Shown here: piece by piece, positions 6,340-60,703 of the stretch | Layout: each line of letters starts with the position of its first letter | How positions within the stretch are numbered: position 1 is the stretch's first letter | Assembly (NCBI GenBank): GCA_964501135.1 | Contig: CAZCRI010000001.1 | Location: 64,393 to 128,392, forward strand | Reading direction: 5' to 3' | DNA length: 64,000 nucleotides | Source of the DNA: an uncultured Candidatus Saccharibacteria bacterium | GTDB lineage: Bacteria > Patescibacteriota > CPR2 > UBA1875 > CAIMLA01 | Notes under the pieces: generated by a model | Seen by the model: the letters and a program-made list of their open reading frames with translations, nothing else | Databases searched by the model: none | What the model was told of the DNA's origin: nothing | Translations under genes and position numbers: made by a program

Positions 6340-6367
6340 TTGGCAAAGCACCCCCACAGTGTACAAT
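6340..6367 (+). promoter_or_regulatory. Sigma70-like promoter TTGGCA-16 nt-TACAAT
   Basis: -35 and -10 hexamers with a 16-nt spacer ~30 nt upstream of the ATG at 6398. The same architecture is duplicated at 9734-9761. Confidence 0.5.
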
Positions 6368-6397
6368 AATAGTAGATTAATATTTGGCGGGGGGTAT

Positions 6398-9790: not shown

Positions 9791-10780
9791 ATGGCTAATG
9801 AAAACGAACCAATAGGCGGTTTCGCCGCTTTTTGGAGTAAGTACTCGAAAAAAATTGAAGTAAGCGTAATGGTGTTACTGGGAGTTGTATTACTAGCGGT
9901 TGGCGGTTACTGGTTGTATCAGACACAAGTAGGTCCCGTGAAGAGAGATTACATTGCGACCTTTGATGGCAAAAAAATTACCGACAAGGATCTGAACAAG
10001 TTTATTTACAGTATTACCATGGGTGGGACTCCAGAGAGCCCCGATCTTGCAGACTATAAAGACGTGCCTAAGAGCCAGTTTCTCGACATGTACCTAGAGA
10101 GTTTGGTTCTTGAGCAGGAGAGCAAGAAACTGGGGGTTACAGTAGCGGATAGTGAGCTAGACGCTATGGTTAGCGAGAAATTCCCTTGGATGGAAAAGTC
10201 CAACATTCTCTTGCCAGACGTAAAAAATTATCAGTTGTATCTCGCTCGTAAAGACAAGTTGATGTCCAAAGTGCTAGGCGATAAGTCTGGGTACTGGATT
10301 ATGGCAAGAAACGACCTATATTTGCCAGATACAGGCAAAGAGATTACCCCAGAGAATAAGCAGAAAACAGACGAGCTGAAGACCTATACGGAGAGCTTTA
10401 TAAAAGATGTTTATGCCAAGCTAAGAGCTCGTACTCTCACTATTCAACAAGCAGTGGAGCTGGAAGTGGCTGACGCCAAGATTGGAAAGAACGCTCCCTC
10501 CGAAAACTCCGGTTTGCATAGCTTGTATTTCGATAGCGAAATGTTCAAGGAAAGAGCTGGACTGCTGAGTGACGCCAAGATTTTAGGTTCTATATCTGCG
10601 CTCAAGGCAGGCGAGTACACTGAGCCAGTGCACCTAGTGAATGAAGAGGGCACCGATATTGGTTGGTATATCATCTATATTGAAAAGTCAGACGCTAATC
10701 CTACGGGACAATCTTACGACGAGTGGCTCACAACAAAAAACACGGCTTATGGCGTGAAGACCTATTTGGAGGCAAAATAA
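9791..10780 (+). CDS. SurA_N/PrsA-like chaperone with degenerate parvulin-like C-terminus and an N-terminal signal anchor
   Basis: MANENEPIGGFAAF... N-terminus paralogous to 6398-9307 residues 1-~300. TM segment. The stop TAA overlaps the next ATG (TAATG). Confidence 0.65.
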   Translation: MANENEPIGGFAAFWSKYSKKIEVSVMVLLGVVLLAVGGYWLYQTQVGPVKRDYIATFDGKKITDKDLNKFIYSITMGGTPESPDLADYKDVPKSQFLDMYLESLVLEQESKKLGVTVADSELDAMVSEKFPWMEKSNILLPDVKNYQLYLARKDKLMSKVLGDKSGYWIMARNDLYLPDTGKEITPENKQKTDELKTYTESFIKDVYAKLRARTLTIQQAVELEVADAKIGKNAPSENSGLHSLYFDSEMFKERAGLLSDAKILGSISALKAGEYTEPVHLVNEEGTDIGWYIIYIEKSDANPTGQSYDEWLTTKNTAYGVKTYLEAK

Positions 10781-24532: not shown

Positions 24533-25471
24533 CTATTTGCTGTGAAAAGCCTTGTGGACTTCTCGTAGTTGCTTGTTGGTGACATGAGTATATATTTGCG
24601 TTGTTGTGATGCTGGAGTGGCCGAGCATTTCCTGAACGCTTCGTAGATCAGCCCCGTTTATTAAAAGGTCGGTGGCGAAACTGTGGCGCATAACGTGCGG
24701 AGTAACATCCTTGATGATACCGGCTAGTTTCGTGTACTTTTTGATAATTCGCTGAACACTGCGGGGAGTAAGGCGCATATACTCACCGTTTTCTTCACTG
24801 TCTTTGAGTCCACCAACGTGAGTGAATAGGGGTTTCTCATCTCTGGATCGGATCTTGAGATAGTCAGAAATGGCGTCTTTGGCTGCGTCGGAGAGAAAGA
24901 CAATCCGTTCCTTGTCTCCCTTGCCCCGGACCATAAATTCGCCACGTTCGAGATTGATGTCATCGATGTCGAGGGCAGTAAGTTCACTAACCCGGAGCCC
25001 AGTGGAAAAGAGGGTCTGGATGATAGCTTTATCTCTCAGCGTAATCTCGTTATTTTTATTTGGGTTTTTCTCGGGTGCCCTTAGAAGTTCCTCGACCTCG
25101 GTGATTTCTAGAAAGGTAAAAGACTTCTTACTAGCCCCAGAGAGCTCCAATTTCTCCGCAGCCAGACAAGGTATGTCACGCTTCGCGAGATACTTTAGAA
25201 AGGCACGCAGGGCTATTACATGGTAATTCTGGGTTATCTTCTCCAGACTTTCCCCGCGGCCACTGTCCAGTCGGTTTAGGTACAACCGATATTTACGAAC
25301 GAGATTTGCCGTAACATCGCCAGGGCGAATATTCTCTCGACGTTTTTCTTTTTGGGCAAACGCGAGAAATCTGCCAAGATAGTGCTCATAATTGCGTATA
25401 GTAAGTTCACTGTGCCCACGCTCGATTTCACAGTATTCTAGAAACTCATTGATTAGGTCTTCTAGATCCAT
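24533..25471 (-). CDS. xerC: Tyrosine recombinase XerC/XerD family
   Basis: Catalytic signature R...HxxR...Y in ...HVMRHSFATDLLINGADLRSVQEMLGHSSITTTQIYTHV. Confidence 0.85.
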   Translation of the reverse strand: MDLEDLINEFLEYCEIERGHSELTIRNYEHYLGRFLAFAQKEKRRENIRPGDVTANLVRKYRLYLNRLDSGRGESLEKITQNYHVIALRAFLKYLAKRDIPCLAAEKLELSGASKKSFTFLEITEVEELLRAPEKNPNKNNEITLRDKAIIQTLFSTGLRVSELTALDIDDINLERGEFMVRGKGDKERIVFLSDAAKDAISDYLKIRSRDEKPLFTHVGGLKDSEENGEYMRLTPRSVQRIIKKYTKLAGIIKDVTPHVMRHSFATDLLINGADLRSVQEMLGHSSITTTQIYTHVTNKQLREVHKAFHSK

Positions 25472-48662: not shown

Positions 48663-49394
48663 TTAGCTCGAAGGTGCCGGCTGCTTCTGCTCGCTCGCGA
48701 GCTTCTCGACATCAGTGACCAATCCCATGGCCACGAGATCGCGGAGAATTCGCTTGTGACCGCAGATCACTCCTTCGGGATTTACGATCCAGTCTTCACC
48801 GCGGTTGAAGAAGCCCCCGTTGATGTACTGGGGCATGTAGCGCCAGATAGGATCGTCCGGGAAGTACCGTGACATGTTCCGTGCGTGAGGAATGACCCGA
48901 TCAATGACGCCCTGGAGAGAGCCAGGGTACTTGACAGGAATCCACATCACGGCCAGGATCAGGGTGTGAGCTGCAATCCTGCGCCGCAGAGCGGCAGGCG
49001 GTTCCGCGCCGTTCTCGTCCAGAGGCGTGTTCAGGTATGCGGTGGACCGAACGGCGTGAAGGCCGGCTCGGTACAGATCTCCGTCGCCGTACTCATCATT
49101 GAGTCCTGAAACCGCGAGATATCGGCGCCAAGGCTCCCGGATAAGCCGGTCTTGCTTGATGGCTTCGAGACCAATCCGAATCTGTTCCGGATCTTCCTGG
49201 CAGTTGATCTCGAACCTGTTGCCAACCTCGGGGAACTCTGCGAAGAGTTCATCGACTTGGCCTCCTGAGAAGAGGCCGTTGACCGAGATTGCGATTGCTT
49301 TGGCGGCAATCTCCGCGGCCTTCTTGTCCGGTACGATATGCGGGTACGTGTGGAAGAAACGCTTCACGTTTCCTACTGCGTACAAAGTACTCAC
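48663..49394 (-). CDS. Hypothetical protein (high-GC island)
   Basis: 243-aa ORF with no recognised motif and strongly elevated G+C. Confidence 0.4.
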   Translation of the reverse strand: MSTLYAVGNVKRFFHTYPHIVPDKKAAEIAAKAIAISVNGLFSGGQVDELFAEFPEVGNRFEINCQEDPEQIRIGLEAIKQDRLIREPWRRYLAVSGLNDEYGDGDLYRAGLHAVRSTAYLNTPLDENGAEPPAALRRRIAAHTLILAVMWIPVKYPGSLQGVIDRVIPHARNMSRYFPDDPIWRYMPQYINGGFFNRGEDWIVNPEGVICGHKRILRDLVAMGLVTDVEKLASEQKQPAPSS

Positions 49395-49922: not shown

Positions 49923-50006
49923 AATAATTCGCCTTCGCATAAAGACTGCTTGTGTGTCAGTCAGATTGTGAGCCACGAATTTGTACCAGAAAAGGAGGTG
50001 AGTCAA

Positions 50007-50120
50007 GTGGTTACTGATGGACCGACGACTGGCTGGGATCAAGACGACGACCGTGGGGAACCTCGTCCCGAACCGACGCCTACCGCTCCTGGACCCGATG
50101 AATTCTCCGACGAGGGCTAG
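50007..50120 (+). CDS. Highly acidic 37-aa micro-protein
   Basis: AAGGAGGTG RBS 7 nt before the GTG. Peptide VVTDGPTTGWDQDDDRGEPRPEPTPTAPGPDEFSDEG. Confidence 0.45.
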   Translation: MVTDGPTTGWDQDDDRGEPRPEPTPTAPGPDEFSDEG

Positions 50121-50177
50121 GTAGCCCTCCGTCCTGATGTACGAAGTCAATCCACTACCACTGTACAGGGAGGAGGT

Positions 50178-50312
50178 ATGATCATGGCCCCTGACGAGCC
50201 CTATGACGATGGTAGTCTGTCTGGTGACGTCGATGTTCTCGATCTCGTGACCGAGACCATCGAGCCCGACACCAGCGGAGCCGACGACTACAGCGCTGAC
50301 TCCCAGCCGTAG
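50178..50312 (+). CDS. Highly acidic 44-aa micro-protein
   Basis: GGGAGGAGG RBS. Peptide MIMAPDEPYDDGSLSGDVDVLDLVTETIEPDTSGADDYSADSQP. Confidence 0.45.
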   Translation: MIMAPDEPYDDGSLSGDVDVLDLVTETIEPDTSGADDYSADSQP

Positions 50313-50337
50313 ACCACGGCTTCAGCCTCAAGCCCAT

Positions 50338-50376
50338 AAGGCCCGGTAACCCGAGAAGGGGTGCCGGGCCTTTCGG
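50338..50376 (+). terminator. GC-rich hairpin terminator
   Basis: GGCCCGGtaacccgagaaggggtgCCGGGCC followed by TTTCGG. Confidence 0.55.
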
Positions 50377-50503
50377 ATTTATTTAACAATAGCTGAGTTC
50401 GATGCTTTCCGTTTTATCGTCGTTAGAAGGATAGTTAACGTGTCTAAGACTAGTTATATAAAGGGTCTAAAGCGGAGAGTCACGGTATTATTTGAAAAAA
50501 TAG

Positions 50504-50893
50504 TTATTCGTTATGTTTTTTCATAGCCTGGATGCTGTCTTTTACTAATTTTTTGACTAGACCCGCCGGGATCTCGCCGTTTGCAGGGAAGCTAAGAATC
50601 GCTTTGGTAGTTTTGTACTCTTTGAGAATATTTGCAAGGTTTTCCAGTGCTGGTGGTCGCACATGAAGGCGGATGTGTGGTGCTTTGTAGCTAAACCACG
50701 CAAACATTCCGTTGTAATCATATCCCTCGTAGGAGTATCCGGGCATCTCAAAATATTGCATGGTTTCGATTGATCCAGGAGCAGCTTCACTTATGGCGGC
50801 TCGAATCTCCTCTAGCTTGTCCCGAATTTCTGTGGGGCAGCTCGCAATATATTCATCTACGGTCTTAATCGTTCTTTCCATGTCTCTCTCCAT
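50504..50893 (-). CDS. DUF1801 (YdhG-like) family protein
   Basis: Start at MERDMERTIK, preceded on the coding strand by TATAAT 4 nt upstream (leaderless). Confidence 0.45.
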   Translation of the reverse strand: MERDMERTIKTVDEYIASCPTEIRDKLEEIRAAISEAAPGSIETMQYFEMPGYSYEGYDYNGMFAWFSYKAPHIRLHVRPPALENLANILKEYKTTKAILSFPANGEIPAGLVKKLVKDSIQAMKKHNE

Positions 50894-51023
50894 TTGTATT
50901 ATAGCCCCGACAAAATACAGACCTGAAGGATAAACTACCGAATGGTAAATTATATGGCGTCTTCTATTTGGCGAAGCGCTTAGTACAGAGTTTATGGAAG
51001 TGTAAACAGGTCTAGAGCAAAGA

Positions 51024-52115
51024 CTATCTAGTATTATCAATTTCTTTCTTGGCTGTTTTTAGAAACTTTCCGAACTGTCGATCTTTCTCCCTTTTTTCTA
51101 CTTCGTTCATCTCATAGTACTCAGACTCCTTCTTTAGGGTAATGTAGTTGTTGTACTGCTCCGGGTTAATTTCTCCTTTTCCGAGTGCAGACAGTATTGT
51201 GCATCCTGGCTCATGCATATGAGTACAATTTCCAAATTTACACTCTTTCGATAGGGCGGTTATCACGGCAAAGGAATCATCTATGCCACTGCTTAGATCC
51301 GTGATTCCGACCTCTCGCATACCTGGATTGTCTATCACGATACCGCCGTTATCTAGTAAATACAGCTGTCTGTTTGTGGTGACGTGTTTCCCTCTGCCTG
51401 CCGCATCACTGATGGCGCCAGTCTTGATTTCGCTACTACCCAGAAGTTGGTTTATAATCGTGGACTTACCAACTCCGGATGAGCCAAGAAAACAATAGGT
51501 CTTCCCTCTGACGATATATTTCGTCAGTGCCTCGAGCCCCTCGTCCGAGACGGTGTTGGTTGCGATTATGTCGATATCACCGAGCCTATCCCGTATTTCC
51601 GCTAGTTTCTCTCCTAGCTCTTCGCTGGGGATTAAATCTACTTTGTTCAAGATTATTACCGGCTTTATCTTATGGTCTCTTACAATCGCGAGATATCTTT
51701 CAAAACGATTTAGGTTGTAGTCCCGATCAACTGATTCGACGATGAGTGCGACGTCAATGTTTGTCGCGATTATCTGGACAATATTCTTTTCGCCGGGTCT
51801 GTTCCTATCACTTCGTTTTCGCTCGATCGTAGTTGCTCTTGGCAAAAAGTTGTGGATTATCGCCCGTCCTTCCTCAAGCTCGGTGATAGCTACCCAGTCA
51901 CCGACAGCGGGGAAGTCTTTCCTAGAGGCAGCTTGTTGGATCTGTTTCCCCGTGACTCTAGCGAGAAATTCACCATTTTCACCAAGAACTTTATATAAGC
52001 CAGAATACTCAGATGTAACTCGGGCGATAGAGAAAGTATCAAGGCCTAATCTCTTGCGATTAGTCTCAAAGGAATCATTATATCCCAGGTCTTTTAGTTT
52101 TATCGTCATTTCCAT
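51024..52115 (-). CDS. rsgA: Ribosome small-subunit-dependent GTPase A
   Basis: Circularly permuted GTPase motifs, GSSGVGKSTIINQL, and the C-terminal zinc motif CKFGNCTHMHEPGC. Confidence 0.85.
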   Translation of the reverse strand: MEMTIKLKDLGYNDSFETNRKRLGLDTFSIARVTSEYSGLYKVLGENGEFLARVTGKQIQQAASRKDFPAVGDWVAITELEEGRAIIHNFLPRATTIERKRSDRNRPGEKNIVQIIATNIDVALIVESVDRDYNLNRFERYLAIVRDHKIKPVIILNKVDLIPSEELGEKLAEIRDRLGDIDIIATNTVSDEGLEALTKYIVRGKTYCFLGSSGVGKSTIINQLLGSSEIKTGAISDAAGRGKHVTTNRQLYLLDNGGIVIDNPGMREVGITDLSSGIDDSFAVITALSKECKFGNCTHMHEPGCTILSALGKGEINPEQYNNYITLKKESEYYEMNEVEKREKDRQFGKFLKTAKKEIDNTR

Positions 52116-52149
52116 ATCATTTCTCCGAAACTATTATACCCTAGTATTA

Positions 52150-52221
52150 ATCGTCAAAAACATAAGCTACCTTGCGGTAGCTTATAAACTGTTCTATTCG
52201 GCGAAGCAAAAGGCGCGGAGG
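52150..52221 (-). repeat. Intergenic module copy A (partial: hairpin plus the GTTCTATTCGGCGAAGC motif)
   Basis: AAGCTACCttgcGGTAGCTT hairpin and the conserved motif abutting the stop codon of the gene at 52222. Confidence 0.6.
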
Positions 52222-52590
52222 TTATATGTAGCGCTTTTTGTCGTGGACGCATAAAGTACCTTCTTCGTTGACCCACTTCTTCTCTTCCTTCTCTAGAAAT
52301 GCCTCGATTCCGTTGTCTCTGATAAACTCCAGGTTCTCTATTTCGCTCATTCCATATCTCTCTTGGTATCGTTCGTCCAGCTTTCGAATGCTTTCACAGG
52401 GGAATTTTTCACACTGAAAGCAGTATTCGCCGGTTCTTTTGGTGCACAGTTTTCGGCTACATTTTAAACACCTGCCGTTTACTTTTCTTCCAGAGAAGCA
52501 CCCAGGGCACTTGTTTTCAGCTCTCAAATGTAGCTGGCATAGACCGCAGTTCATGCCACAAGGAGCGATAAGCTCTTTTTTCATCTTCAT
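52222..52590 (-). CDS. DUF3795-like Cys-rich protein
   Basis: At least 12 Cys in CxxC-type pairs near the N-terminus (CGMNCGLC..CPGC..C..C). Confidence 0.45.
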   Translation of the reverse strand: MKMKKELIAPCGMNCGLCQLHLRAENKCPGCFSGRKVNGRCLKCSRKLCTKRTGEYCFQCEKFPCESIRKLDERYQERYGMSEIENLEFIRDNGIEAFLEKEEKKWVNEEGTLCVHDKKRYI

Positions 52591-52650
52591 GATTATATTA
52601 TAGCAAAACAGAATAGTGCTGTCGTAATTGCGAAACCATTTCTGGTTCTA

Positions 52651-52686
52651 GTGTTCTATTTGGCGAAGAAGTACTCTGCGCAGGAG
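52651..52686 (-). repeat. Intergenic module copy B (partial: GTTCTATTTGGCGAAG motif)
   Basis: Conserved motif immediately after the stop codon of the gene at 52687. Confidence 0.5.
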
Positions 52687-53082
52687 TCAGAGTGAGGTAA
52701 TTTGATTTATCAACCTCTTGTATTCATCTCTCATGTTCAGTTTTGAAATTTCGCAATCACCAAACCATCCGAAATCTGTCGATTCGTGATCAAGTTCAAT
52801 CTCTTCTAGTTGTGCCGAACAGCTATAAACCAGAACGATAAAGTGATACTCGGCAATATCGGTTTTCGAGACAAAAGAAAAGGTGCTTATTGGATTGCCG
52901 ACCGATACTTTTTCCGCTCCCAGTTCTTCCTTTAGCTCACGTTTCAAAGCTTCCTCTGGACTTTCCCCAAATTCTATCCTGCCGCCCGGTAGTTCCCAAA
53001 CATTATTATTGTCTTTGACTAATAATACCTTGCTGCCATTTCTGATAATCGCTTTAGTCGTAGTTCTCTGTAATTTTTTCAT
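52687..53082 (-). CDS. NUDIX hydrolase
   Basis: NUDIX box GGRIEFGESPEEALKRELKEELG. Confidence 0.8.
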   Translation of the reverse strand: MKKLQRTTTKAIIRNGSKVLLVKDNNNVWELPGGRIEFGESPEEALKRELKEELGAEKVSVGNPISTFSFVSKTDIAEYHFIVLVYSCSAQLEEIELDHESTDFGWFGDCEISKLNMRDEYKRLINQITSL

Positions 53083-53103
53083 AAATATTATTATATCAAA
53101 AAA

Positions 53104-53203
53104 CGTCTTAGCAGATAAAGTTTTCTACGTCATTAATAGAAATAAGCTACCTTGCGGCAGCTTATTTAGTAGGTTCTATTTGGCGAAGCGGGAGGCGCTG
53201 GAG
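53104..53203 (-). repeat. Intergenic module copy C (full length)
   Basis: GCTTAGCAG...TTTTCTACGTCATTAATAGAAATAAGCT-hairpin-AGCTTATTTAGTAGGTTCTATTTGGCGAAGCGGGAGGCGC. An extended -10 TGATATAAT lies 7 nt before the ATG of 52687-53082. Confidence 0.7.
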
Positions 53204-53692
53204 CTATTTTTTATTATTCATAATTTCTAAAAGCTCGGCTGCAGTTTCTTTTGGATTTTGTTCCGAATTATCAATAACGGTGCCGTATCCGGGATTGTTA
53301 ATCTTAATTTTATAGTGGTAATGGATTCTATCCACCTCTTTACTGTCAAGCTCTCGATTCCCCCTGTTTGTTATTACCTTTTCGAGTTTTGGGCTAAGAG
53401 TGAAGGCATGTATTTCCGTTCCTAAATTATCCAATTCAGATACAATTTTTTTATAGCTCTCCTTCGTCAGAGGATAGGGAATAATAACATTATAATTATT
53501 TTTTGCGAAAGATTTAATCACTTCAGCGCCGACCTTGTGCACCATCGGTATTGCCTTATCAATTGGTAGCCAATCAATAAAGTGTCTGATGCTATCAAAT
53601 TCAACGAGAGCAGTATCTGGAATCATTTTTTGAAGAATTTCAGATACAGTAGACTTGCCTGCATTTATTGATCCGTTTATAAAAATAATCAT
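53204..53692 (-). CDS. P-loop NTPase / small-molecule kinase-like protein (AAA_33-like)
   Basis: The N-terminal Walker A motif IFINGSINAGKSTV. 162 aa. Confidence 0.5.
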   Translation of the reverse strand: MIIFINGSINAGKSTVSEILQKMIPDTALVEFDSIRHFIDWLPIDKAIPMVHKVGAEVIKSFAKNNYNVIIPYPLTKESYKKIVSELDNLGTEIHAFTLSPKLEKVITNRGNRELDSKEVDRIHYHYKIKINNPGYGTVIDNSEQNPKETAAELLEIMNNKK

Positions 53693-53712
53693 ACGCTTAT
53701 TTTATCACAAAA

Positions 53713-53813
53713 AGCGCTTAGCAGGTTAACTGTTTTGCGTCATTAATAGAAATAAGCTACCCCAAGGTAGCTTATTTAGTATGTTCCATTTGGCGAGGCA
53801 CTCAGCGCGGGAA
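53713..53813 (-). repeat. Intergenic module copy D (full length)
   Basis: Hairpin variant AAGCTACCccaaGGTAGCTT, a perfect stem. Extended -10 TGATAAAAT. Confidence 0.7.
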
Positions 53814-54296
53814 CTAATTAACTTTAGATAAATATTTTTTTAATGCAGCAATCTTTTGATTATCAGCATCGCCCTTTCTCTCTTTTCGATAGTTATCTTT
53901 CAACGATGCTTCATACGCCCTTAAATATTGCGATGCATCTAAAACATAGAATCTTGCCCCTTGCTTGTCTACAGGGGTTAATTTTTCAATTGTCAGTCCT
54001 GAATGTTGTTTGGATTCTTCAAGAGAACCGAAAGCAATCCAGCCCTCAATTTCTTTATGAGAGAATTCATGCTCATGCTCATCATCCATTCTAAACCCCA
54101 TTGACTCGAGATACCCCTTAAAATCTAACCACCTATCTTTTAAATAAGTTTCGGGTATTAAATAATCTATGTCGTCTACAGGATTTAACGGCTCGATTAT
54201 TTGGTACAAACCCAAGGAGCCATATAGGACTGGGGTAATTCCCCATTTATTTAGGATCTTTGTAACTCTAATAAAATCATTGAACTTTTTTTGCAT
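53814..54296 (-). CDS. Nucleotidyltransferase-fold protein (Lnu/ANT-like minimal NTase)
   Basis: PVLYGSLGLY...DDIDYLIP matches the hG[GS]...DxD NTase motif. 160 aa. Confidence 0.45.
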   Translation of the reverse strand: MQKKFNDFIRVTKILNKWGITPVLYGSLGLYQIIEPLNPVDDIDYLIPETYLKDRWLDFKGYLESMGFRMDDEHEHEFSHKEIEGWIAFGSLEESKQHSGLTIEKLTPVDKQGARFYVLDASQYLRAYEASLKDNYRKERKGDADNQKIAALKKYLSKVN

Positions 54297-54316
54297 GTGT
54301 AAATCTTATCAAAAAA

Positions 54317-54420
54317 TGTGCTTAGCAGATAGCTAAAATTGCGTCATTAATATAAATAAACTACCTTGCGGCAGCTTATTAGACTTGTTCCATTTGGCGA
54401 ACCACTCAGCGCAGGAACCA
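54317..54420 (-). repeat. Intergenic module copy E (full length)
   Basis: Hairpin variant AAACTACCttgcGGCAGCTT. Extended -10 TGATAAGAT. Confidence 0.7.
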
Positions 54421-54585
54421 ACTATGAATATGAAAATATTATGAAAAGCGCCCCAACCAACTTGTGGGTGGAGCGCAGCCAGGACCAGGATGAAATCCTG
54501 CTCGAACTGACTTTGTACCATGTGAATTTAGGACCTTGGTACGAGATCCTGTCCGCTCAAATTTGAGCGCTTCTTGCTGCCCGAA

Positions 54586-54687
54586 CTATTTCTTCGGTTC
54601 GGGCGTCTTCGTGCCCGGCTCGGGCTTCTCCTTGACGGTGATCGCGGACACCTTCTGGGCGTCCAAGACCGCTTTGCACTTAGACAT
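54586..54687 (-). CDS. 33-aa Lys-rich peptide with a single Cys (candidate precursor peptide)
   Basis: GGAAGGAGGTG RBS 3 nt upstream of the ATG, which overlaps the stop of the YkgJ-like gene. Peptide MSKCKAVLDAQKVSAITVKEKPEPGTKTPEPKK. Confidence 0.35.
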   Translation of the reverse strand: MSKCKAVLDAQKVSAITVKEKPEPGTKTPEPKK

Positions 54688-55258
54688 GGTTGTCACCTCC
54701 TTCCCCAACTAGGATATCGATTGAGGCGATCGCCTCGAATGAGTTGGGACCGTCGGGGAAAGACGATATCTCGTCGATTTCCGCGTACTCATCGGTGAGA
54801 CTCCGGATCGTTCCCGGGGAAACGGAACGAAGAATCTCGATGACTGTGCGGAAGAAGGACATCCTCTTTTCGCCTTGAAGCTCTCGGGAGAACTGGCAGT
54901 CCTCGTGCAATACGAGCTGCACTATGCCTTCGTACATGGCGAACCCGACAGGGTACATCCGGCATACGAGAGGCCGAGAGTTGTAGATTGTACACAAGCC
55001 TTCGGCTCGTAGTCTGCAAGGTGGCTTTGGCTTGTCGATCAGGATGTGACCGTCGACTTCTTCGAAGGAGTGCAGGAAGTGCAGTCCTTTGTTGATCTCG
55101 ACTATCGGTACACCCAGCTCGTATAGAGATTCGGCTTCCTCTCCTAGAAGCCAGACGTAGCCTTCACAGTCGTGGTCTTTGCAGTCGGCACAAATCATGC
55201 CGATTGTCTCGTAGATACGCCCAAACGCGTCGTATAGCGTTCTTAAGTCCTTGTTCAA
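54680..55258 (-). CDS. YkgJ-family (UPF0153, CxxCxxCC-type) putative Fe-S/zinc cluster protein
   Basis: CADCKDHDC near the N-terminus. PPCRLRAEGLCTIYNSRPLVCRMYP matches the family signature C.IY..RP..CR.YP. AGGAGG RBS before the TTG start. Confidence 0.6.
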   Translation of the reverse strand: MNKDLRTLYDAFGRIYETIGMICADCKDHDCEGYVWLLGEEAESLYELGVPIVEINKGLHFLHSFEEVDGHILIDKPKPPCRLRAEGLCTIYNSRPLVCRMYPVGFAMYEGIVQLVLHEDCQFSRELQGEKRMSFFRTVIEILRSVSPGTIRSLTDEYAEIDEISSFPDGPNSFEAIASIDILVGEGGDNHV

Positions 55259-55260
55259 CT

Positions 55261-56172
55261 TCAGCCTCCTTTCAGAATCGGGCAGCGTGAGGTGTCGTTG
55301 AGGCAGATACTGATTCCCGAGGCGTTGTATACCGCGTAGCGGCAGGACCGGGGTATCTGCTGTGTAGTGTGGTAGAGCGTGTGGTCGTTCATAAAATCCT
55401 CATCGAGTAGCGCCCCGATCAAAGACTCGGGACTGTGCAGAGCAAGCTCTGCACAGGGGTATACCACCCCTCTGTAATCGATGTAGGCAGAACGGGTCGA
55501 GATCTCGCAGGAGCAATCGAGGGGACTGCTACCGAGCTCGAGGGTCGGATCCAACTGAGAGCGAATGATTCTCAGCTTTTCAGCTAGGTCCATTCCACCA
55601 AGTCCGAGGTAGCTATTCTTACTGGCCCTGCCTTCGCAGTTGATCTCATTGAAGTGGAAACTACCAACGCCCAACCCGATCAGCTCCAGGACTATTTCGT
55701 CCAGGCTTCTAAGGTTGAGTGAGTTGATAGTCAGATAGACGGTAACAGGTTTTCCGGTTTCGACTATCTTTGACAGGGTTGCAACAGTCTTGCGGAACGA
55801 TCCCGTTCCTCGAATCAGATCGTGAATACGTTCGGTTCCTTCGACACTGACTCCAATCTGGTCGATGAGACCTTCGTTGATGACTGAAGTCGTTGCCTCT
55901 TGGTAGGTCCCGTTGGTGATGATGCTGGTCGAGATACCGAGCGTTTTCGCTTGCCGTAGCAGGAGGTGAAGGTCCTTCCGGGTGAAAGGTTCCCCGCCCG
56001 TGATAAACACCCTCTGACATCCCAGCGAAGCAATCTTCCTCAGGATCTGAACAGACGCTTCGGTGCTTGTCTCACCGGTTTCTAGATCACCGATGATGCA
56101 GTGGGTGCATTGCAGGTTGCAGTTGCGGGTGATCTCCCAGTGCCAGTCTCGGAGTGTCGGGGGGTTATCCAT
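55261..56172 (-). CDS. Radical SAM / SPASM-domain enzyme (second of a pair)
   Basis: CNLQCTHC (CxxxCxxC), GGEP, and a C-terminal Cys-rich region (C..C..C...C) consistent with SPASM/twitch auxiliary clusters. Confidence 0.8.
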   Translation of the reverse strand: MDNPPTLRDWHWEITRNCNLQCTHCIIGDLETGETSTEASVQILRKIASLGCQRVFITGGEPFTRKDLHLLLRQAKTLGISTSIITNGTYQEATTSVINEGLIDQIGVSVEGTERIHDLIRGTGSFRKTVATLSKIVETGKPVTVYLTINSLNLRSLDEIVLELIGLGVGSFHFNEINCEGRASKNSYLGLGGMDLAEKLRIIRSQLDPTLELGSSPLDCSCEISTRSAYIDYRGVVYPCAELALHSPESLIGALLDEDFMNDHTLYHTTQQIPRSCRYAVYNASGISICLNDTSRCPILKGG

Positions 56173-57469
56173 GATCCGGCCCTGCGAAGTCGATCGCACC
56201 AACTTGTGCGAGCAGGGAGACGAGTCTCCTCATCTCGTTGGTTTCGACCCGTTTGGCGTTCAGCTCGATGAGCTCAGCCTCAGAGGTGATGCCGCCGAGA
56301 ATCTGTTTGAGGATGTGGATGCACAGGGCATCAATCTCGATCGTTTGATACCGGGTGACCAGGTAGGCTTCCTTATGGGCCGTGTTAATCCTGGCGTACG
56401 AGTTGGGTCGGAAAGACCGCATCTCGGACAGAAAGTCCGGCGATGTGGTCTTAGTGGGCAGCTCGGCGTTATTCGTGATAGTCAGCGCTTCGTTGCCCCT
56501 TACAGCGTAGTCTACGCTGTAGGTTTGCGCCGAGTTCGCGTCGACCTTGCACCCGCAAAGGCATTCGGTCAGGACGTCGCAACCGACGCACGGTCTCTCA
56601 ATCCATCCAAGATCTCTGAACTCCGAGAGTTCCGGATTGCTCCAGATGGTTTCGAAGTCCTCGGTCAGGATGTTGCCGTATACCCGTTCTGATTGGTTGC
56701 AGGTACGGACGTTGCCGTTGGGGTTGACGGCGGCGAAGGTGACTCCAGCGCCGCAGTCCGCGGTCATCTGCTCGGGGATCAGGCGATCGTCGAGACAGAA
56801 GGGAATTGCAGTACCCCAACCGACGGGGATGTTGAAGTCGTCGCGACCCTGGATCATCTGACCCAGCGCAATGCGGAACTGCTCGGTCGAGGGCTTCATC
56901 TGCGTAGAGCTTTGGCTTCCTAAGCCACCGTCTTCGTATCTGTCTACAAAGACGCTTTCCATGCCCATCTCCTTGGCCAGACGGATCAGATCGTACATCT
57001 GGTCGAAGTTCTGGGCCGTGAGGACCGGGATGCAGCGAACGTCGAATCCTCGCTCGACGTATTTCATGATCGAGCTCGTGGCCTGCTTGAAGCTCCCGGC
57101 CTTGTTCGTAAGGTAGTCGTGAGTATTCTCCATGCCATGGAGCGGTACGCCGATGCACGCGAGCTTGGTCGAGAGGCCATCGAGGTACACTTGGCCGTTC
57201 GTAACGATGGTCACGGATGACTGTGTAGACAGCAGCTCGATGTACTCGTTGAGCTTTACTGTCCCTAGGAGACTGGGTTCACCTCCGATGAGGTAGACGT
57301 GGGGGATCTTCGATGCGTGAACCCTGGCGACGATCTGGTCTATGATGGCCGGGTCGATCCTGCTGTTGCGGTTGGGGTTGTAGCAGAACTTGCACTGCTG
57401 GTTACACGCGTAGGTGGTTTCGATGTGAACGAGATGCGGAACACTCGGTGCGATAATCTGGCAGGGCAT
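56165..57469 (-). CDS. Radical SAM / SPASM-domain enzyme (first of a pair) with a ~100-aa C-terminal extension
   Basis: CNQQCKFC, GGEP, and the SPASM cysteines CGAG...C...PCVGCDVLTECLCGCK. The extra C-terminal alpha-helical-looking region could be an RRE-like domain. Confidence 0.8.
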   Translation of the reverse strand: MPCQIIAPSVPHLVHIETTYACNQQCKFCYNPNRNSRIDPAIIDQIVARVHASKIPHVYLIGGEPSLLGTVKLNEYIELLSTQSSVTIVTNGQVYLDGLSTKLACIGVPLHGMENTHDYLTNKAGSFKQATSSIMKYVERGFDVRCIPVLTAQNFDQMYDLIRLAKEMGMESVFVDRYEDGGLGSQSSTQMKPSTEQFRIALGQMIQGRDDFNIPVGWGTAIPFCLDDRLIPEQMTADCGAGVTFAAVNPNGNVRTCNQSERVYGNILTEDFETIWSNPELSEFRDLGWIERPCVGCDVLTECLCGCKVDANSAQTYSVDYAVRGNEALTITNNAELPTKTTSPDFLSEMRSFRPNSYARINTAHKEAYLVTRYQTIEIDALCIHILKQILGGITSEAELIELNAKRVETNEMRRLVSLLAQVGAIDFAGPDHG

Positions 57470-57474
57470 CGCGG

Positions 57475-57780
57475 TTACCTCCCGTTTCTCTTCATGACTT
57501 CAAGGATGGTGTCGAAGTTGTCGTTCTCCGCGGACTTACACCGCTTCACGGCACCACACTTGGTGCATTTGAAGGTAATGATGTAGCCCAGTCCTTTCGT
57601 CTCGATCGAGATGGGCTCCATGAGCCCCTGGCATTCTGACTGTCGATCTCCAGGATTGATATCCACGTGTTTGCTGTGAAGACACTCGGGGCAGTGGTTA
57701 GTATAACCATTGCCGACGGTTGTGTGTCCACAGTGTTCGCAGATAAAATCCTCGATGTTACGAGTAAATCGCTTACTCAT
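57475..57780 (-). CDS. RNHCP-domain zinc-ribbon protein
   Basis: CEHCGHTTVGNGYTNHCPEC matches the xNHCP motif between two CxxC pairs. A second knuckle is CTKCGAVKRC. AAAGGGAG RBS before the ATG at 57780. Confidence 0.55.
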   Translation of the reverse strand: MSKRFTRNIEDFICEHCGHTTVGNGYTNHCPECLHSKHVDINPGDRQSECQGLMEPISIETKGLGYIITFKCTKCGAVKRCKSAENDNFDTILEVMKRNGR

Positions 57781-57949
57781 CGAAGACACTCCCTTTCTGG
57801 GGTTTGGATAGTTTTCAAGGAACCGTTCTGTTAACAGGTTCTCTATGATATAGAGCACCAGTTAACCATGATTTATACCACTTACAGAGCGTTATGTCAA
57901 TCTAAATCAGGCAGTAAGCGCTGACGGAGATCGTTTGCTACAAGGTAAA

Positions 57950-57977
57950 AAAGACGGTATCTTTGATACCGTCTAGA
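57950..57977 (-). terminator. Rho-independent terminator after the GNAT gene
   Basis: GACGGTATCaaagaTACCGTC hairpin followed by a T-run on the minus strand. Confidence 0.6.
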
Positions 57978-57985
57978 AAGTCATA

Positions 57986-58444
57986 TTATCGACATTTGAT
58001 ATTTTTTACATACACCGCACAGGGATTTCCGGGACTCCATCCAGGGTAGGGTTCTATCACGTCTACTTTTACAAATCCATTCTTTTCATAAAAAGATCTA
58101 GTGCTTACATAGGGTTCATATTCAGCGCTCTCGTCGAGCGTTTTTACTTCGATATAGATTTTTTCTGAATATTCTTTTTCGATGTGCTCGAGTAGTTTAG
58201 TCCCAAGTCCGGAGCGTTGGCGGTCTCTTAATACTGCGAAGTGCTTAATCTCCACAGTTTCAGAGGACTTGTCTTCTAGGATCACGAAGGCTTGGACTCC
58301 GGCATCCTCTACCAAGTACGTCGGTAAACTTAATATATGTTTAGAAATCTCTGACAATTCTTTTACATCAAACCATTCCGGCAGTTCTTTTGCGATAGCA
58401 ATGCAGGAGTCGAAATCTTCTTTTCTTGCCTTTCTAATTTCCAT
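57986..58444 (-). CDS. GNAT family N-acetyltransferase
   Basis: QRSGLGTKLL acetyl-CoA-binding motif. Confidence 0.8.
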   Translation of the reverse strand: MEIRKARKEDFDSCIAIAKELPEWFDVKELSEISKHILSLPTYLVEDAGVQAFVILEDKSSETVEIKHFAVLRDRQRSGLGTKLLEHIEKEYSEKIYIEVKTLDESAEYEPYVSTRSFYEKNGFVKVDVIEPYPGWSPGNPCAVYVKNIKCR

Positions 58445-58465
58445 GTCTAAATGATACCACGAAAA

Positions 58466-58565
58466 TACTTAGCAGATTAATCGAATTGCGTCATTAATAT
58501 AATAAGCTGACCGAAGTCAGCTTATTAAGTATGTTCCATTTGGCGAGCCGGAGGGCGCCAAGGCC
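58466..58565 (-). repeat. Intergenic module copy F (full length)
   Basis: Hairpin variant AAGCTGACcgaaGTCAGCTT, with compensatory changes against copies C-E. Extended -10 TGGTATCAT. Confidence 0.7.
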
Positions 58566-58622
58566 ATAGTTTGAACTTAAATGAGACAAATGAGACACCT
58601 AGCAGGTAGTCTTTTAGTTGTT

Positions 58623-59162
58623 CTAAATGATACCCTGACTGGACAAGACGCCAAGTAGGCTCATGATAAATATCAAACAAATGCCAATGATTGCCAAGAC
58701 ATTCCATACTTTCTTTGGCTTCTTATACCAACAGAAGATTCCCGTAGAGAATAATGCTGAATAGATTAGCATTTCTGGAAGCCCAATTAGGTGAGCATGC
58801 CATGGGATTATAGTATAGAGAACCCCTTCAAATGAGCCAGGCCCAGGTAGTTGTGGCGCAAAGAGCGTAAACCCAACTATCAGCATAAATAAATACAGCC
58901 AACCGTTCTTCTTTTCTAGGAAAATAGAACGAAATGGGAAAAGAAATACTGACATAAATAATCCAAGTATAATTTGTAATGACGGCCCCATAGCCACAAT
59001 TGCGGAGTCAATGGGTCGCATTAGCGATGAGAGTACATCAGAAGAAAATAACTCTTTGTAGCCCATAAAGATAAGAGCAAAGATTCCTGCTACAAAATAC
59101 GTTATTGTATGCAGAGCAACGATACGCCAACTGAACTCTAGAAATTCCTTTTTATTTTTCAT
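58623..59162 (-). CDS. Polytopic membrane protein (hypothetical)
   Basis: 179 aa with 5-6 TM helices. AAGGAGG RBS. Confidence 0.4.
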   Translation of the reverse strand: MKNKKEFLEFSWRIVALHTITYFVAGIFALIFMGYKELFSSDVLSSLMRPIDSAIVAMGPSLQIILGLFMSVFLFPFRSIFLEKKNGWLYLFMLIVGFTLFAPQLPGPGSFEGVLYTIIPWHAHLIGLPEMLIYSALFSTGIFCWYKKPKKVWNVLAIIGICLIFIMSLLGVLSSQGII

Positions 59163-59197
59163 TGTTTCCTCCTTGTCAAGATAATCATAACATAAAG

Positions 59198-59300
59198 TGC
59201 TTAGCAGCTAGAGTATTTTGCGTCATTAATAGAAATAAGCTGACCGAAGTCAGCTTATTAAGTATGTTCTATTTAGCGAAGCGGGAGACGTCAAGACTGC
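59198..59300 (-). repeat. Intergenic module copy G (full length)
   Basis: Same hairpin variant as copy F. GCTTAGCAG and GCGTCATTAATAGAAATAAGCT are conserved. Confidence 0.7.
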
Positions 59301-59304
59301 CCAG

Positions 59305-60078
59305 TTAAGCTGCTTTCTTCAATTTTGTCATATCTAATAAACAGTCAATATCCCATCCAAAGATAGTTGGAAGTGCAACGTTCTCGAAACTGCCAAAGTC
59401 TGTGTGTGGCAAGTCCCTCCAGTTGCTAAGCCTGTTATTCGCTACCGCGTATAGTTGTATGCCAAGCATAGTCGGAACTACTTTTGTATATGGAAATGTT
59501 CGTTTGTCTTCAAGGGCTTGGTGATCTGCGGAGTAATGATTAGTGATTAGGCCTTTGTTATAGAGTGCAACTAAGTCTTTATCTATATCGATACCTAGTG
59601 ATTCAAGTTCATTTGTAGAAAAACATAAATCACGTTTTTGAACGTCAGTAGCCGATCCAGCATTAATAGCTTTTGCTTCATCGCCAAGCTTCAACCATAG
59701 GCTATTTAATGTGTGGTAGATAACATAGTGAAATAATAACTGTTGTGAAGATAGCGACTTAATAATATCGGTATAGTAGATTCCGCGATCGTCTTTTCCA
59801 TCACTTGAGCGTGATGATGCCAAAATACCACCAAAATATTCAGCACAAACGTAGTCATCAGAATATGCACCGTTCCAGAATACATCTCTTGCAATCCTTA
59901 AGTTCGCTATTTTACCGTCATTTATGTTATTAATCTTTTTTTGAGCGGCTACAATAATTTTGTCCCTGCCAGCGGCATAAACATTTGCCAAATCAGCAGC
60001 TATAGTCTCAGCAGTTTTACCAAGAAGTTTATTTGCTACAGTAAGAGCTGCTCCTGTTGTCACAATATCTACCACCAT
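59305..60078 (-). CDS. Hypothetical protein
   Basis: 257-aa ORF with an AAGGAG RBS. No motif recognised. Confidence 0.35.
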   Translation of the reverse strand: MVVDIVTTGAALTVANKLLGKTAETIAADLANVYAAGRDKIIVAAQKKINNINDGKIANLRIARDVFWNGAYSDDYVCAEYFGGILASSRSSDGKDDRGIYYTDIIKSLSSQQLLFHYVIYHTLNSLWLKLGDEAKAINAGSATDVQKRDLCFSTNELESLGIDIDKDLVALYNKGLITNHYSADHQALEDKRTFPYTKVVPTMLGIQLYAVANNRLSNWRDLPHTDFGSFENVALPTIFGWDIDCLLDMTKLKKAA

Positions 60079-60082
60079 GAAT

Positions 60083-60119
60083 CTCCTTTACAAAAGCTGC
60101 AAACCCATCGGCTTGCAGC
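60083..60119 (-). terminator. Long hairpin terminator downstream of tRNA-Asp
   Basis: ACAAAAGCTGCAAacccatcggcTTGCAGCTTTTGT: a 13-bp perfect stem followed by a T-run. Confidence 0.6.
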
Positions 60120-60190
60120 TTTTGTAAGTCGACCGGTATTAGCGGCCCCCATGTTATTTATTTGGAACATTAGTTCCATCTTGCTTACTT

Positions 60191-60267
60191 TGGCGATCCA
60201 GATGGGACTCGAACCCACGACCTCCGCCGTGACAGGGCGGCGCTCTAACCAGCTGAGCTACTGGACC
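60191..60267 (-). tRNA. tRNA-Asp (anticodon GTC), 3' CCA encoded
   Basis: The reverse complement is GGTCCAGTAGCTCAGCTGGTTAGAGCGCCGCCCTGTCACGGCGGAGGTCGTGGGTTCGAGTCCCATCTGGATCGCCA. Anticodon stem CCGCC/GGCGG, anticodon loop CU-GUC-AC, GTTCGAGTC T-loop. Confidence 0.8.
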
Positions 60268-60312
60268 GAATGAGCGAAATGCTTATTTCGCGAATAAATT
60301 GTGAAGCTGGTT

Positions 60313-60373
60313 CCAGCTGCCCCGACGATAAACCAAGTTTATGTCGGGATCCCGATTTAGCATCGGGGAGCTA
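60313..60373. repeat. Structured direct repeat (two hairpins), left copy flanking the GIY-YIG gene
   Basis: GCTGCCCCGACgataaaccaagtttatGTCGGGATCCCGATttagcATCGGGG shares GCTGCCCCGACG, GTCGGGATCCCGATTT and CATCGGGG with the copy at 60704-60760. Confidence 0.65.
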
Positions 60374-60378
60374 CCGGG

Positions 60379-60642
60379 CTACGCCGACTTGATAATACCG
60401 TCGCGTATTATCTTCTCGATGTAGTCTTTTCTTTTCCAGCTTTTCACCTTTAGTTCGACAGTTCTAGCCGTGCTAGTTGAGTCGAATTCTTGGGTGAAAA
60501 CCAGTTTGTAGGGTACGTTTCTCTTTGTGTATGTTGATCTACCAGAGTTGTGTTCCTGGAGTCTCCCCTCGGGGTTATTTGTACTCCCGACGTAAAAAGA
60601 ACCATTCTTTTCGCTCTGTAATATATAAACAAAACAACTCAT
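60379..60642 (-). CDS. GIY-YIG nuclease-family protein (small, standalone)
   Basis: FYVGSTNNPEGRLQEHNSG is the GIY-YIG core (Y..G.T.N...R..EH). 87 aa counted from the ATG at 60642. Confidence 0.65.
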   Translation of the reverse strand: MSCFVYILQSEKNGSFYVGSTNNPEGRLQEHNSGRSTYTKRNVPYKLVFTQEFDSTSTARTVELKVKSWKRKDYIEKIIRDGIIKSA

Positions 60643-60703
60643 CCCATCATCCTGTTTGTCTGGATGCAGTACGATTTGCTTATACCGATAAAGCACTTTC
60701 GTC

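Follow-up and report, generated by a model that had tools for sequence, protein, structure and literature searches.

What kind of locus places unrelated accessory genes in a row on one strand and sets almost the same stretch of DNA before each of them? The question is raised by a repeat family in a 64,000-nucleotide (nt) stretch of DNA from an uncultured Candidatus Saccharibacteria bacterium, referred to here as the window, where the repeats form the junctions between minus-strand open reading frames (ORFs) downstream of a transfer RNA (tRNA) gene, tRNA-Asp(GTC). The repeat duplicates the 3′ part of this tRNA gene and the whole sequence usually found behind it, as far as the next start codon. 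It is highly probable that the locus is a variable cassette array, the junctions of which derive from the 3′ end of tRNA-Asp. As to how the units arrive, the balance of evidence leans slightly towards an integron-like cassette array that combines site-specific seeding at a tRNA-derived core with homologous reshuffling, and in which the junction module would serve as terminator and promoter.

The family is supported in the window by three approaches. The motif TTCGCCAAATRGAA, allowing up to two mismatches, has eight matches in the 64-kb window, all on the minus strand and all within 50,962-59,280, against a mean of 1.1 matches in shuffled controls, none of which (0/100) reaches eight. A direct-repeat finder followed by alignment delimits five canonical modules of ~97 nt, named A to E, with a mean column identity of 84% and a spacer between TATTAATGACG and CTGCTAAG that is constant at 13 nt. 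A covariance model trained on the five gives them scores of 99-111 bits. The sequence-only reading of the window had proposed an eight-member family of five full and three partial copies, and the motif count, the repeat finder and the model together show that it is real. The three partial copies are genuine junctions that have diverged (F, G and H); F reaches 33.9 bits and H 9.7 bits, and G gives no model match. In both G (~52654) and H (~50962), Box 1, a hairpin and a -10 box can still be recognised, and the remainder has diverged. All copies in the window sit between minus-strand ORFs, and the Pfam-confirmed genes around them encode DUF1801, RsgA, DUF3795, NUDIX, CPT-like kinase and GNAT proteins and a radical-SAM/SPASM block of high guanine-plus-cytosine (GC) content. 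An Rfam 15 scan at E values up to 5 over 50,000-60,500 returned the tRNA and a chance nadA match only, and the module matches no curated family.

The junctions follow one order: a degenerate pseudo-tRNA tail, Box 1 (CGCCAAATRGAAC), a covarying hairpin of 10-12 bp, Box 2 (TATTAATGACGCAA) and a promoter-like module, CTGCTAAGCA-CTTTTT-TGnTAnnAT-N6-ATG. The full repeat measures ~145 nt, from a T-loop-like GG(T/C)TC motif to the ATG. It exceeds the extent first assigned to the module, as the unit begins ~25 nt further upstream at GG(T/C)TC and ends at the ATG. The motif GCTTCGCCAAATAGAAC, which abuts stop codons and for which the sequence-only reading knew no function, consists of the 3′ end of tRNA-Asp(GTC) and the trailer behind it, and tRNA-Asp heads the array. 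This 3′ end, ...GGTTCGAGTCCCATCTGGATCGCCA, is the template for the 5′ part of every junction module. The derivation can be seen directly in three related loci, L003 (tRNA 877-953, element 933-1029), L006 (2521-2597, 2577-2674) and L021 (7743-7819, 7668-7763), in which tRNA-Asp overlaps the first element and the ...GTCCCATCTGGATCGCCA of the tRNA makes up its first ~20 nt. The end of the tRNA is followed there by AATAGAAC, the hairpin, TATTAATGACGCAA, CTGCTAAGCA, the -10 box and the next ATG. Arrays are headed by tRNA-Asp also in the window, L009 and L022. In copies extended upstream, the pseudo-tRNA tail has the consensus GG(T/C)TCC-N-GCGC-N6-8-TCGCCA, and in 21 of 39 distinct non-tRNA copies G[TC]TC[CAG] starts exactly 21 nt before CCA, the offset of GTTCG in the true tRNA. 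The origin of the repeat follows from the overlap of the tRNA with the first elements and from this preserved T-loop offset. A small AGCG-N5-CGCT hairpin noticed by eye within the pseudo-tRNA tail was set aside, since its paired positions hardly vary.

The hairpin that follows Box 1 behaves like an RNA structure under selection. Across 45 distinct copies, 97.7% of the cells of the inner 10-bp helix are paired, both sides change in six of the ten pairs, and 25 stem variants occur. The covariation noted earlier in copies of the window extends to the whole set, and the description as a structured repeat family under selection at gene boundaries is borne out. The non-Watson-Crick cells comprise 27 G-T and 3 A-C, and because of this asymmetry the fold is taken to be selected on the gene-sense strand. 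The loops are often UUCG or GCAA, the folding energy lies between -13 and -16 kcal/mol, and a tail of UUAUUU(C/A)UAUU follows. Such a structure fits an intrinsic terminator, originally that of the tRNA itself, and does not fit the bottom-strand fold of an integron attC site. A generic terminator scan flags copy F only, since the U-tract overlaps the lower stem.

The 3′ part of the module has the consensus AATCTGCTAAGCA-CTTTTT-(G/A)TG-n-TA(A/G)nAT-N6-ATG, with TG at -15/-14 and TAnnAT at -12 to -7 relative to the ATG. In a position table of 18 copies, T-12, A-11, A-8 and T-7 are each present in 16-17 and G-14 in 17. The next start codon lies 20-24 nt after the end of the model match, at exactly 22 nt in 18 of 44 distinct copies, so the extended -10 box described earlier does stand at a set distance from the ATG. 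This geometry would put the transcription start on or next to the ATG. The sequence geometry expected of a leaderless promoter, with TGnTAnnAT 6-7 nt before the ATG and no Shine-Dalgarno sequence, is thus present, the exception being copy E, in which 35 nt separate the model end from the ATG and a Shine-Dalgarno sequence, AAGGAGG, stands before it. The module can stand alone, as it does upstream of the first gene of the L001 array. A sigma-70 scan flags none of the canonical copies. The possibility that CTGCTAAG is a general -35-like element of the genome was considered and rejected, its exact copies in the window being found in the array only. Because exact CTGCTAAG and exact TTAATGACGCAA are confined to these elements within the window, the array promoter module is not the general promoter type of the genome.

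The family is not peculiar to one genome. A scan of a genome collection with TATTAATGACG-N13-CTGCTAAG gave 8 loci, each in a different assembly, and the same pattern gave 19 metagenome loci. Five of the eight genome-collection matches have informative titles, and all five are Patescibacteria or Saccharibacteria. With the covariance model, 48 elements (45 distinct) were detected in 19 non-redundant sources, namely the window and 18 further loci in which the repeat arrays recur. All 48 elements share the strand of their flanking ORFs. The stop codon of the upstream gene typically lies 2-17 nt before the model start, and the median start-to-start period within arrays, computed by hand from the coordinates, is ~726 bp. 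The cassette genes are of an accessory kind: GNATs, a CPT-like kinase, a deaminase, a pyrophosphatase, a CDP-alcohol transferase, an EEP nuclease and Fic, and further DUF2130, alanine racemase, queuosine salvage, an AAA_21+RloB pair and radical-SAM/SPASM. Comparison of these genomes by blastn aligns the elements only, at 71-82% identity, with the one exception of a coding-sequence match with L009, while the proteins common to them are just 50-65% identical. For this reason, the element is judged to be under purifying selection. It is absent from the viral contigs, GenBank phages and PLSDB plasmids searched.

The variable nature of the array becomes apparent when arrays with common flanks are compared. 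The window and L003 have the GIY-YIG gene and tRNA-Asp upstream in common, and their gene content differs except for one kinase, which is differently placed. In L006, tRNA-Asp is followed by one element and a 337-amino-acid gene; in L021 the flanks are syntenic and the corresponding gene is 78% identical, with an extra Fic gene and a second element between. The deaminase occurs in L003 and L010, and a 189-amino-acid ORF in L010 and L027, each time with different neighbours, and a hydrolase has elements on both sides in L027 and is found outside the array in L003. Homologues of the kinase are found in the window, L003, L042, L044 and L038, at other array positions or in other contexts. In L044 the promoter part before an 88%-identical kinase is almost base for base the same as that of junction B, and the tail, the hairpin and the next gene differ. 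The junctions are also more decayed the farther they lie from the tRNA. Distal to the five intact junctions of the window come one of 33.9 bits, one without a match (G) and one of 9.7 bits, and in L003 the successive scores are 94, 82, 96, 89, 52 and 41 bits.

Signs of a site-specific step are found at the points where units join. Three independent non-canonical inserts, namely the first unit of the window, the AAA_21+RloB pair of L005 and an insert in L013, begin exactly after TCGCCAA(A). The far ends were read for two of them, the window first unit and L005, and consist of a pseudo-tRNA tail plus CGC(C/T)AA, so that both inserts are flanked by short direct repeats of the core. The L005 insert (2183-4097, minus strand) encodes an AAA_21 ATPase and an RloB-like protein, a defence-type pairing, and lies after a pseudo-tRNA CCA; AGGTGTTCGAAA is present at both of its ends, which hints at integration of the T-loop type inside an array. 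Divergence right after TCGCCAA(A) is likewise seen between the otherwise near-identical contigs L005 and L018 and between L013 and L026, which are also near-identical. Other such pairs diverge elsewhere: L011 and L022 are 99.5% identical downstream of TCGCC and unrelated upstream, and L005 and L024 are 99% identical upstream and divergent after AATGACGCA.

Part of the Box 1 core (TCGCCAAAT..) recurs in Box 2 (GACGCAAAAT..), with CGC(C/A)AAA in common, and the mean identity of the two boxes is 0.54 at register 0 and 0.09-0.40 when shifted. Box 2 is also the site of several breakpoints and of three small inserts, the latter at AATGAC^GCAAAA. These inserts, at L021 7620-7700 (minus strand), L027 130-200 and L016 3080-3140, are 30-52 nt long, stand between the AATGAC and GCAAAA of Box 2 and end in ..GGCAGGC; the one in L021 starts with CCTCCTTCGCTAAA, which resembles a pseudo-tRNA tail plus Box 1. 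The small inserts may be scars of lost units.

According to the favoured explanation, units, usually of one gene, would be added through conservative recombination at the core derived from the tRNA, for the most part at the end nearest the tRNA gene, and older junctions would be pushed distally and then decay. Homologous recombination and gene conversion between junctions would swap, delete and homogenise units, an exchange made plausible by the ~75-95% similarity of all junctions. The junction would be multifunctional: an attachment or homology site, the terminator of the upstream gene and the promoter of the downstream gene. Its hairpin would be the terminator hairpin that follows the tRNA, and with a terminator and a promoter in each junction, each cassette is proposed to be an independent transcription unit. 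The recombinase would be encoded elsewhere in the genome.

Several observations weigh against this explanation. The similarity of Box 1 to Box 2 is short, the identity of 0.54 extending over 12 nt. The canonical breakpoints are spread, lying just 5′ of TCGCC, after TCGCCAA(A), after GACGCA and, in the more diverged L044, apparently after CTGCTAAG; homologous recombination predicts such a spread, and a single crossover site would not give it. In the array L001 (= L019), which starts behind an aminoacyl-tRNA synthetase gene, the first gene is preceded by the promoter module only, so anchoring at the tRNA is not universal. The RsgA-family GTPase of the window is a housekeeping-type gene and unusual as a cassette, and the terminator and promoter roles are predictions from sequence. 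The search for an associated recombinase came back empty: Pfam found none near any array among 50 ORFs of array regions and flanks in the window and seven loci, there is none at 59.3-64 kb of the window, and phmmer with the Xer-like protein of the window detected no homologue in 27 loci. That protein (24533-25471, minus strand, 312 amino acids) is the only tyrosine recombinase of the window and lies 25 kb from the array. It is of a generic Xer type, scoring 246 bits for XerC and 241 bits for XerD (both below cutoff) and 240 bits for the archaeal-type XerA (above the cutoff of 220). It may be named as a candidate trans-acting enzyme for the array, and the link is pure conjecture.

Among the rivals, the one that survives best, and that is still unlikely, holds that a conserved terminator-promoter block from downstream of tRNA-Asp offers nothing more than portable homology, and that exchange proceeds solely by RecA-type recombination or gene conversion, e.g., after natural transformation. 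The scatter of breakpoints over the module, the lack of a recombinase near the arrays and the ability of the promoter module to occur alone all agree with it. The Box 1-hairpin-Box 2 block also behaves as its own linkage unit, with distance-matrix correlations of 0.48 and 0.39 inside it and 0.09 and 0.12 across its edges, an analysis of module segments that is suggestive and low-powered, most flanking genes being unique. In L001 and L003, the flanks of which are unrelated, this central block is 96.9% identical, and variants private to one array, such as TTCATGACG in two L003 junctions, suggest concerted evolution. Saccharibacteria are naturally transformable, and the window encodes PilM and a T2SSE ATPase. 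However, inserts with a left end not homologous to the canonical module are joined precisely behind TCGCCAA(A) and flanked by core repeats of 6-8 nt, a length far below what RecA-type exchange needs. The near-invariant boxes of 12-14 nt and the pseudo-tRNA GG(T/C)TCC.GCGC at fixed spacing are not explained by terminator and promoter function, and homology does not explain how unrelated genes first acquired modules on both sides. We conclude that both processes act, homologous recombination or gene conversion and conservative insertion at the core, the latter being the step that we infer.

A second alternative, and a clearly improbable one, sees in the repeats a family of cis-regulatory RNAs or operators only, the boxes of which bind a regulator or an RNA-processing factor that co-controls a fixed gene cluster, with no role in mobility. 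The sense-strand selection of the hairpin, its RNA-type tetraloops, the fixed distance to the ATG and the restriction of CTGCTAAG and TTAATGACGCAA to the array, which sets them apart from general promoter elements of the genome, are in line with regulation. Yet the cluster is not fixed: gene content is almost wholly different between genomes with the same tRNA-Asp anchor, units are gained or lost together with one junction, and no regulatory purpose of the pseudo-tRNA tail is obvious. Regulation and mobility are moreover compatible, so it is just the word "only" that is at stake.

A canonical integron array without an integrase (a cluster of attC sites lacking integron integrases, CALIN), in which the modules would be attC sites, is very unlikely. 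It would account for co-oriented, mostly single-gene units of ~0.5-1 kb with accessory GNAT, NUDIX, Fic, kinase and deaminase genes, and for two conserved boxes around a hairpin that is conserved in structure and variable in sequence. The aligned copies, however, contain no RYYYAAC or GTTRRRY boxes, and a longer, bulged, attC-like fold proposed by RNAalifold was rejected, as its middle and outer helices are invariant and the outer ones unsupported, with pair 30-108 broken in 26 of 45 copies and pair 15-119 in 21 of 45. An attC site recombines as a folded bottom strand; in the array repeat it is the gene-sense strand on which folding is favoured. A separate promoter-like module accompanies every unit, the repeat originates in the 3′ end of a tRNA, and the sole tyrosine recombinase of the window, besides its distance from the array, scores 126 bits against the integron-integrase model TIGR02249, the cutoff of which is 265. 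Equally implausible is a selfish repeat of the miniature inverted-repeat transposable element (MITE) or repetitive extragenic palindromic (REP) type inserted into pre-existing intergenic regions, a resemblance that had been suggested earlier and that the short, structured, multi-copy form of the repeat recalls: the copies have one orientation, shared with the genes, and one locus per assembly, lack terminal inverted repeats and target duplications, keep exact spacing to stop and start codons, are gained or lost together with a gene, and in the first case are fused to the tRNA.

The array of the window can be followed unit by unit, all on the minus strand, from the tRNA towards lower coordinates. 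The head is tRNA-Asp(GTC) at 60191-60267 (Rfam tRNA match of 69 bits, ARAGORN and reading of the sequence). It is followed at 60079-60190 by a non-canonical "type 2" trailer, recognised by sequence reading, and the same trailer type occurs after tRNA-Asp in L009 and L022. After TCGCCAAA, this trailer reads GTAAGCAAGATGGAAC-TAAT-GTTCCAAATAAATAAC; a terminator-like hairpin of its own comes next, and a Shine-Dalgarno sequence that belongs to the first gene. The form AAGTAAGCAAGATGGAAC-YAAG-GTTCCAAATAAAATATTAAC is common to the three genomes (window 60079-60190, minus strand; L009 5531-5647; L022 ~766-884), and the trailer holds a GGAAC/GTTCC palindrome that resembles Box 1 plus its inverse, without the inner hairpin. 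The first unit, 59305-60078, is an ORF of 257 amino acids without a family match, flanked by CGCCAAA at the tRNA end and CGCTAAA in Box 1 of E; in L022 a different gene stands between the same flanks in this position.

Junction E (59163-59304, model match 59198-59294, 111 bits) contains the pseudo-tRNA tail, Box 1, a GCTGAC/GTCAGC hairpin, Box 2, CTGCTAAGCA and a TGtTATGAT -10 box, and then a leader with AAGGAGG. Beyond it lie a hydrophobic cassette ORF of 179 amino acids without a family match (58623-59162) and junction D (58445-58622, model match 58466-58561, 101.5 bits). A tandem motif, GTGTCTCATTTGTCTCATTT, is found at 58566-58622 on the minus strand, just upstream of the pseudo-tRNA tail of this junction, and recurs at L011 ~4690-4715, L002 ~745-770 and L021 ~6435-6460, so that it is present in four different genomes including that of the window. 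A GNAT acetyltransferase cassette confirmed by Pfam (57986-58444) comes next. Between it and junction C a multi-gene insert of high GC content, delimited by GC, Pfam and sequence, occupies 54416-57985, with a GC fraction of 0.51-0.57 against 0.35-0.42 in neighbouring cassette windows. It encodes an RNHCP-domain protein, two radical-SAM proteins (one of them SPASM), a CxxCxxCC protein and a small ORF ending in ...PEPGTKTPEPKK, and its end is a pseudo-tRNA tail that runs into C. The block looks like a cluster of the type that makes ribosomally synthesised and post-translationally modified peptides (RiPPs). A radical-SAM/SPASM gene is present in the L001 array too.

Junction C (54297-54440, model match 54319-54415, 99.4 bits) has the pseudo-tRNA tail GTTGGTTCCTGCGCTGAGTGGTTCGCCA. 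The following cassette, an ORF of 160 amino acids at 53814-54296, had been labelled a nucleotidyltransferase, and no family match was found for it. Junction B (53693-53813, model match 53715-53811, 110 bits) and junction A (53083-53203, model match 53105-53201, 106 bits) enclose the CPT-like P-loop kinase cassette (53204-53692, Pfam), and the NUDIX hydrolase cassette (52687-53082, Pfam) lies beyond A. With junction G (52591-52686) the diverged part of the array begins; the junction comprises a pseudo-tRNA tail, Box 1 in the form TTCGCCAAATAGAAC, a hairpin of different sequence (GAACCA-GAAA-TGGTTTC) and TGcTATAAT-N6-ATG. It is followed by the DUF3795 cassette (52222-52590, Pfam) and by the half-decayed junction F (52116-52221, model match 52131-52219), which has kept Box 1 and the hairpin, has lost Box 2 and CTGCTAAG, and retains TATAAT and a leader. 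The RsgA-family GTPase (51024-52115, Pfam) sits between the decayed junctions F and H and is either a captured housekeeping-type gene or a second copy. The most decayed junction, H (50894-51023), shows Box 1 as CTTCGCCAAATAGAAG, a weak hairpin AATTTACC-ATTC-GGTAGTTTA and GcTATAAT near the ATG. The DUF1801 gene (50504-50893, Pfam) is the last unit with a recognisable upstream junction. An ORF of 243 amino acids at 48663-49394 (minus strand), with no Pfam match, is 50% identical to the gene directly after the only canonical element of L009 (7574-8104), and because of this resemblance the array-derived region of the window may reach down to ~48.6 kb, with junctions decayed past recognition.

A small protein with a GIY-YIG nuclease domain is encoded directly upstream of tRNA-Asp in the window (60379-60696, minus strand) and in L003 (493-759), with ~54% identity between the two. 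The gene is absent from the same place in L006, L009 and L021, and a 50%-identical homologue (P0007) belongs to an unrelated organism that encodes LpxC and an alpha-2-macroglobulin-like protein; on these grounds GIY-YIG was set aside as a component of the system and is regarded as probable local synteny. Elsewhere in the window, the same pair of near-matches to CTGCTAAG occurs at ~8700-9040 and ~12300-12630, 3,590 nt apart, and the ORFs 6359-9307 and 10723-12897 are each trailed by an ORF of 92 amino acids, which suggests a duplicated segment unrelated to the array.

The array shares features with several known systems and coincides with none of them. Islands formed by tyrosine integrases in tRNA genes are a general class, catalogued in Islander (PMC4383910), and the tycheposon islands of Prochlorococcus are tRNA-seeded and built by serial integration, in which incoming elements push older ones deeper (bioRxiv 10.1101/2020.12.28.424599). 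Like tRNA islands, the array has a full tRNA gene at its head and direct repeats of part of the tRNA at unit boundaries; like tycheposon islands in particular, it has newer units beside the tRNA and older, decayed ones distally, and accessory and defence cargo. Unlike such islands, its units are mostly single genes of ~0.5-1 kb rather than multi-kb elements, contain no integrase or replication module, and follow one another as regularly as in integron arrays. The repeat, at ~145 nt, is highly conserved well beyond the tRNA part and would supply a terminator and a promoter. In terms of the crossover segment, the non-canonical inserts join at CGCCAA(A) and the canonical units break at several positions of the module.

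With integrons and CALINs the array has in common co-oriented, compact, mostly single-gene cassettes, a structured repeat of ~100 nt that is homogeneous within an array, apparently polar insertion and a similar accessory repertoire. The sequence-only reading called the integron resemblance superficial; it was underrated, since the units are co-oriented and mostly single genes and the content varies between genomes. The array nevertheless differs from integrons in lacking IntI, attI and R″/R′ boxes, in having a tRNA-derived repeat with a structure favoured on the sense strand, and in giving each cassette a promoter-like module of leaderless geometry, where integrons share the common promoter Pc. 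Another group of systems consists of Xer-dependent modules, such as the pdif modules of Acinetobacter plasmids and integrative mobile elements exploiting Xer (IMEX), which use a housekeeping-type recombinase encoded elsewhere. These too are discrete gene modules bounded by short recombination sites, and the only tyrosine recombinase of the window is a generic Xer-type protein. The array sites, in contrast, are tRNA-derived and display, by eye, just an imperfect AGCTTATT / TnTATT / AATGACGC arrangement, compared with a 28-bp dif site with two 11-bp arms. Finally, the module resembles an ordinary intrinsic terminator and extended -10 promoter in its stable hairpin of 10-12 bp followed by UUAUUU.UAUU and in its TGnTAnnAT with 6 nt to the ATG; unlike such elements, the modules are 75-95% identical between unrelated genes and divergent genomes. 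As read from its sequence, the array joins the tRNA anchor of islands with the regular single-gene architecture of integrons and appears to add a built-in terminator and promoter. Literature searches on integrons and cassette arrays in the Candidate Phyla Radiation (CPR) or Saccharibacteria, and on the motifs, found no description of it, the coverage of these searches being incomplete.

What the locus may mean depends on how much of this explanation holds. In its broadest form, which we put forward tentatively and as less than an even prospect, Saccharibacteria and related CPR bacteria would own an analogue of the integron: a capture locus seeded at tRNA-Asp, with a pseudo-tRNA attachment site and a self-contained expression module for each cassette, and with the recombinase, possibly a single XerA-like enzyme, encoded elsewhere. 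Saccharibacteria have genomes of ~1 Mb or less, with few recognised mobile elements or known routes of gene gain. If the proposal is true, a locus dedicated to the swapping of single genes would be a main route of gene flux in a large and mostly uncultured radiation, and the genes observed in the arrays include acetyltransferases, kinases, NUDIX hydrolases, Fic, restriction and defence genes and a radical-SAM peptide cluster. The module is in addition a candidate portable promoter/terminator pair and landing pad for Saccharibacteria genetics. On the same condition, cassette arrays would have evolved a second time, from a tRNA attachment site and convergently with integrons, which bears on how cassettes and their recombination sites originate. 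Such arrays would represent a convergent and previously undescribed solution to the acquisition of genes in ultra-small genomes.

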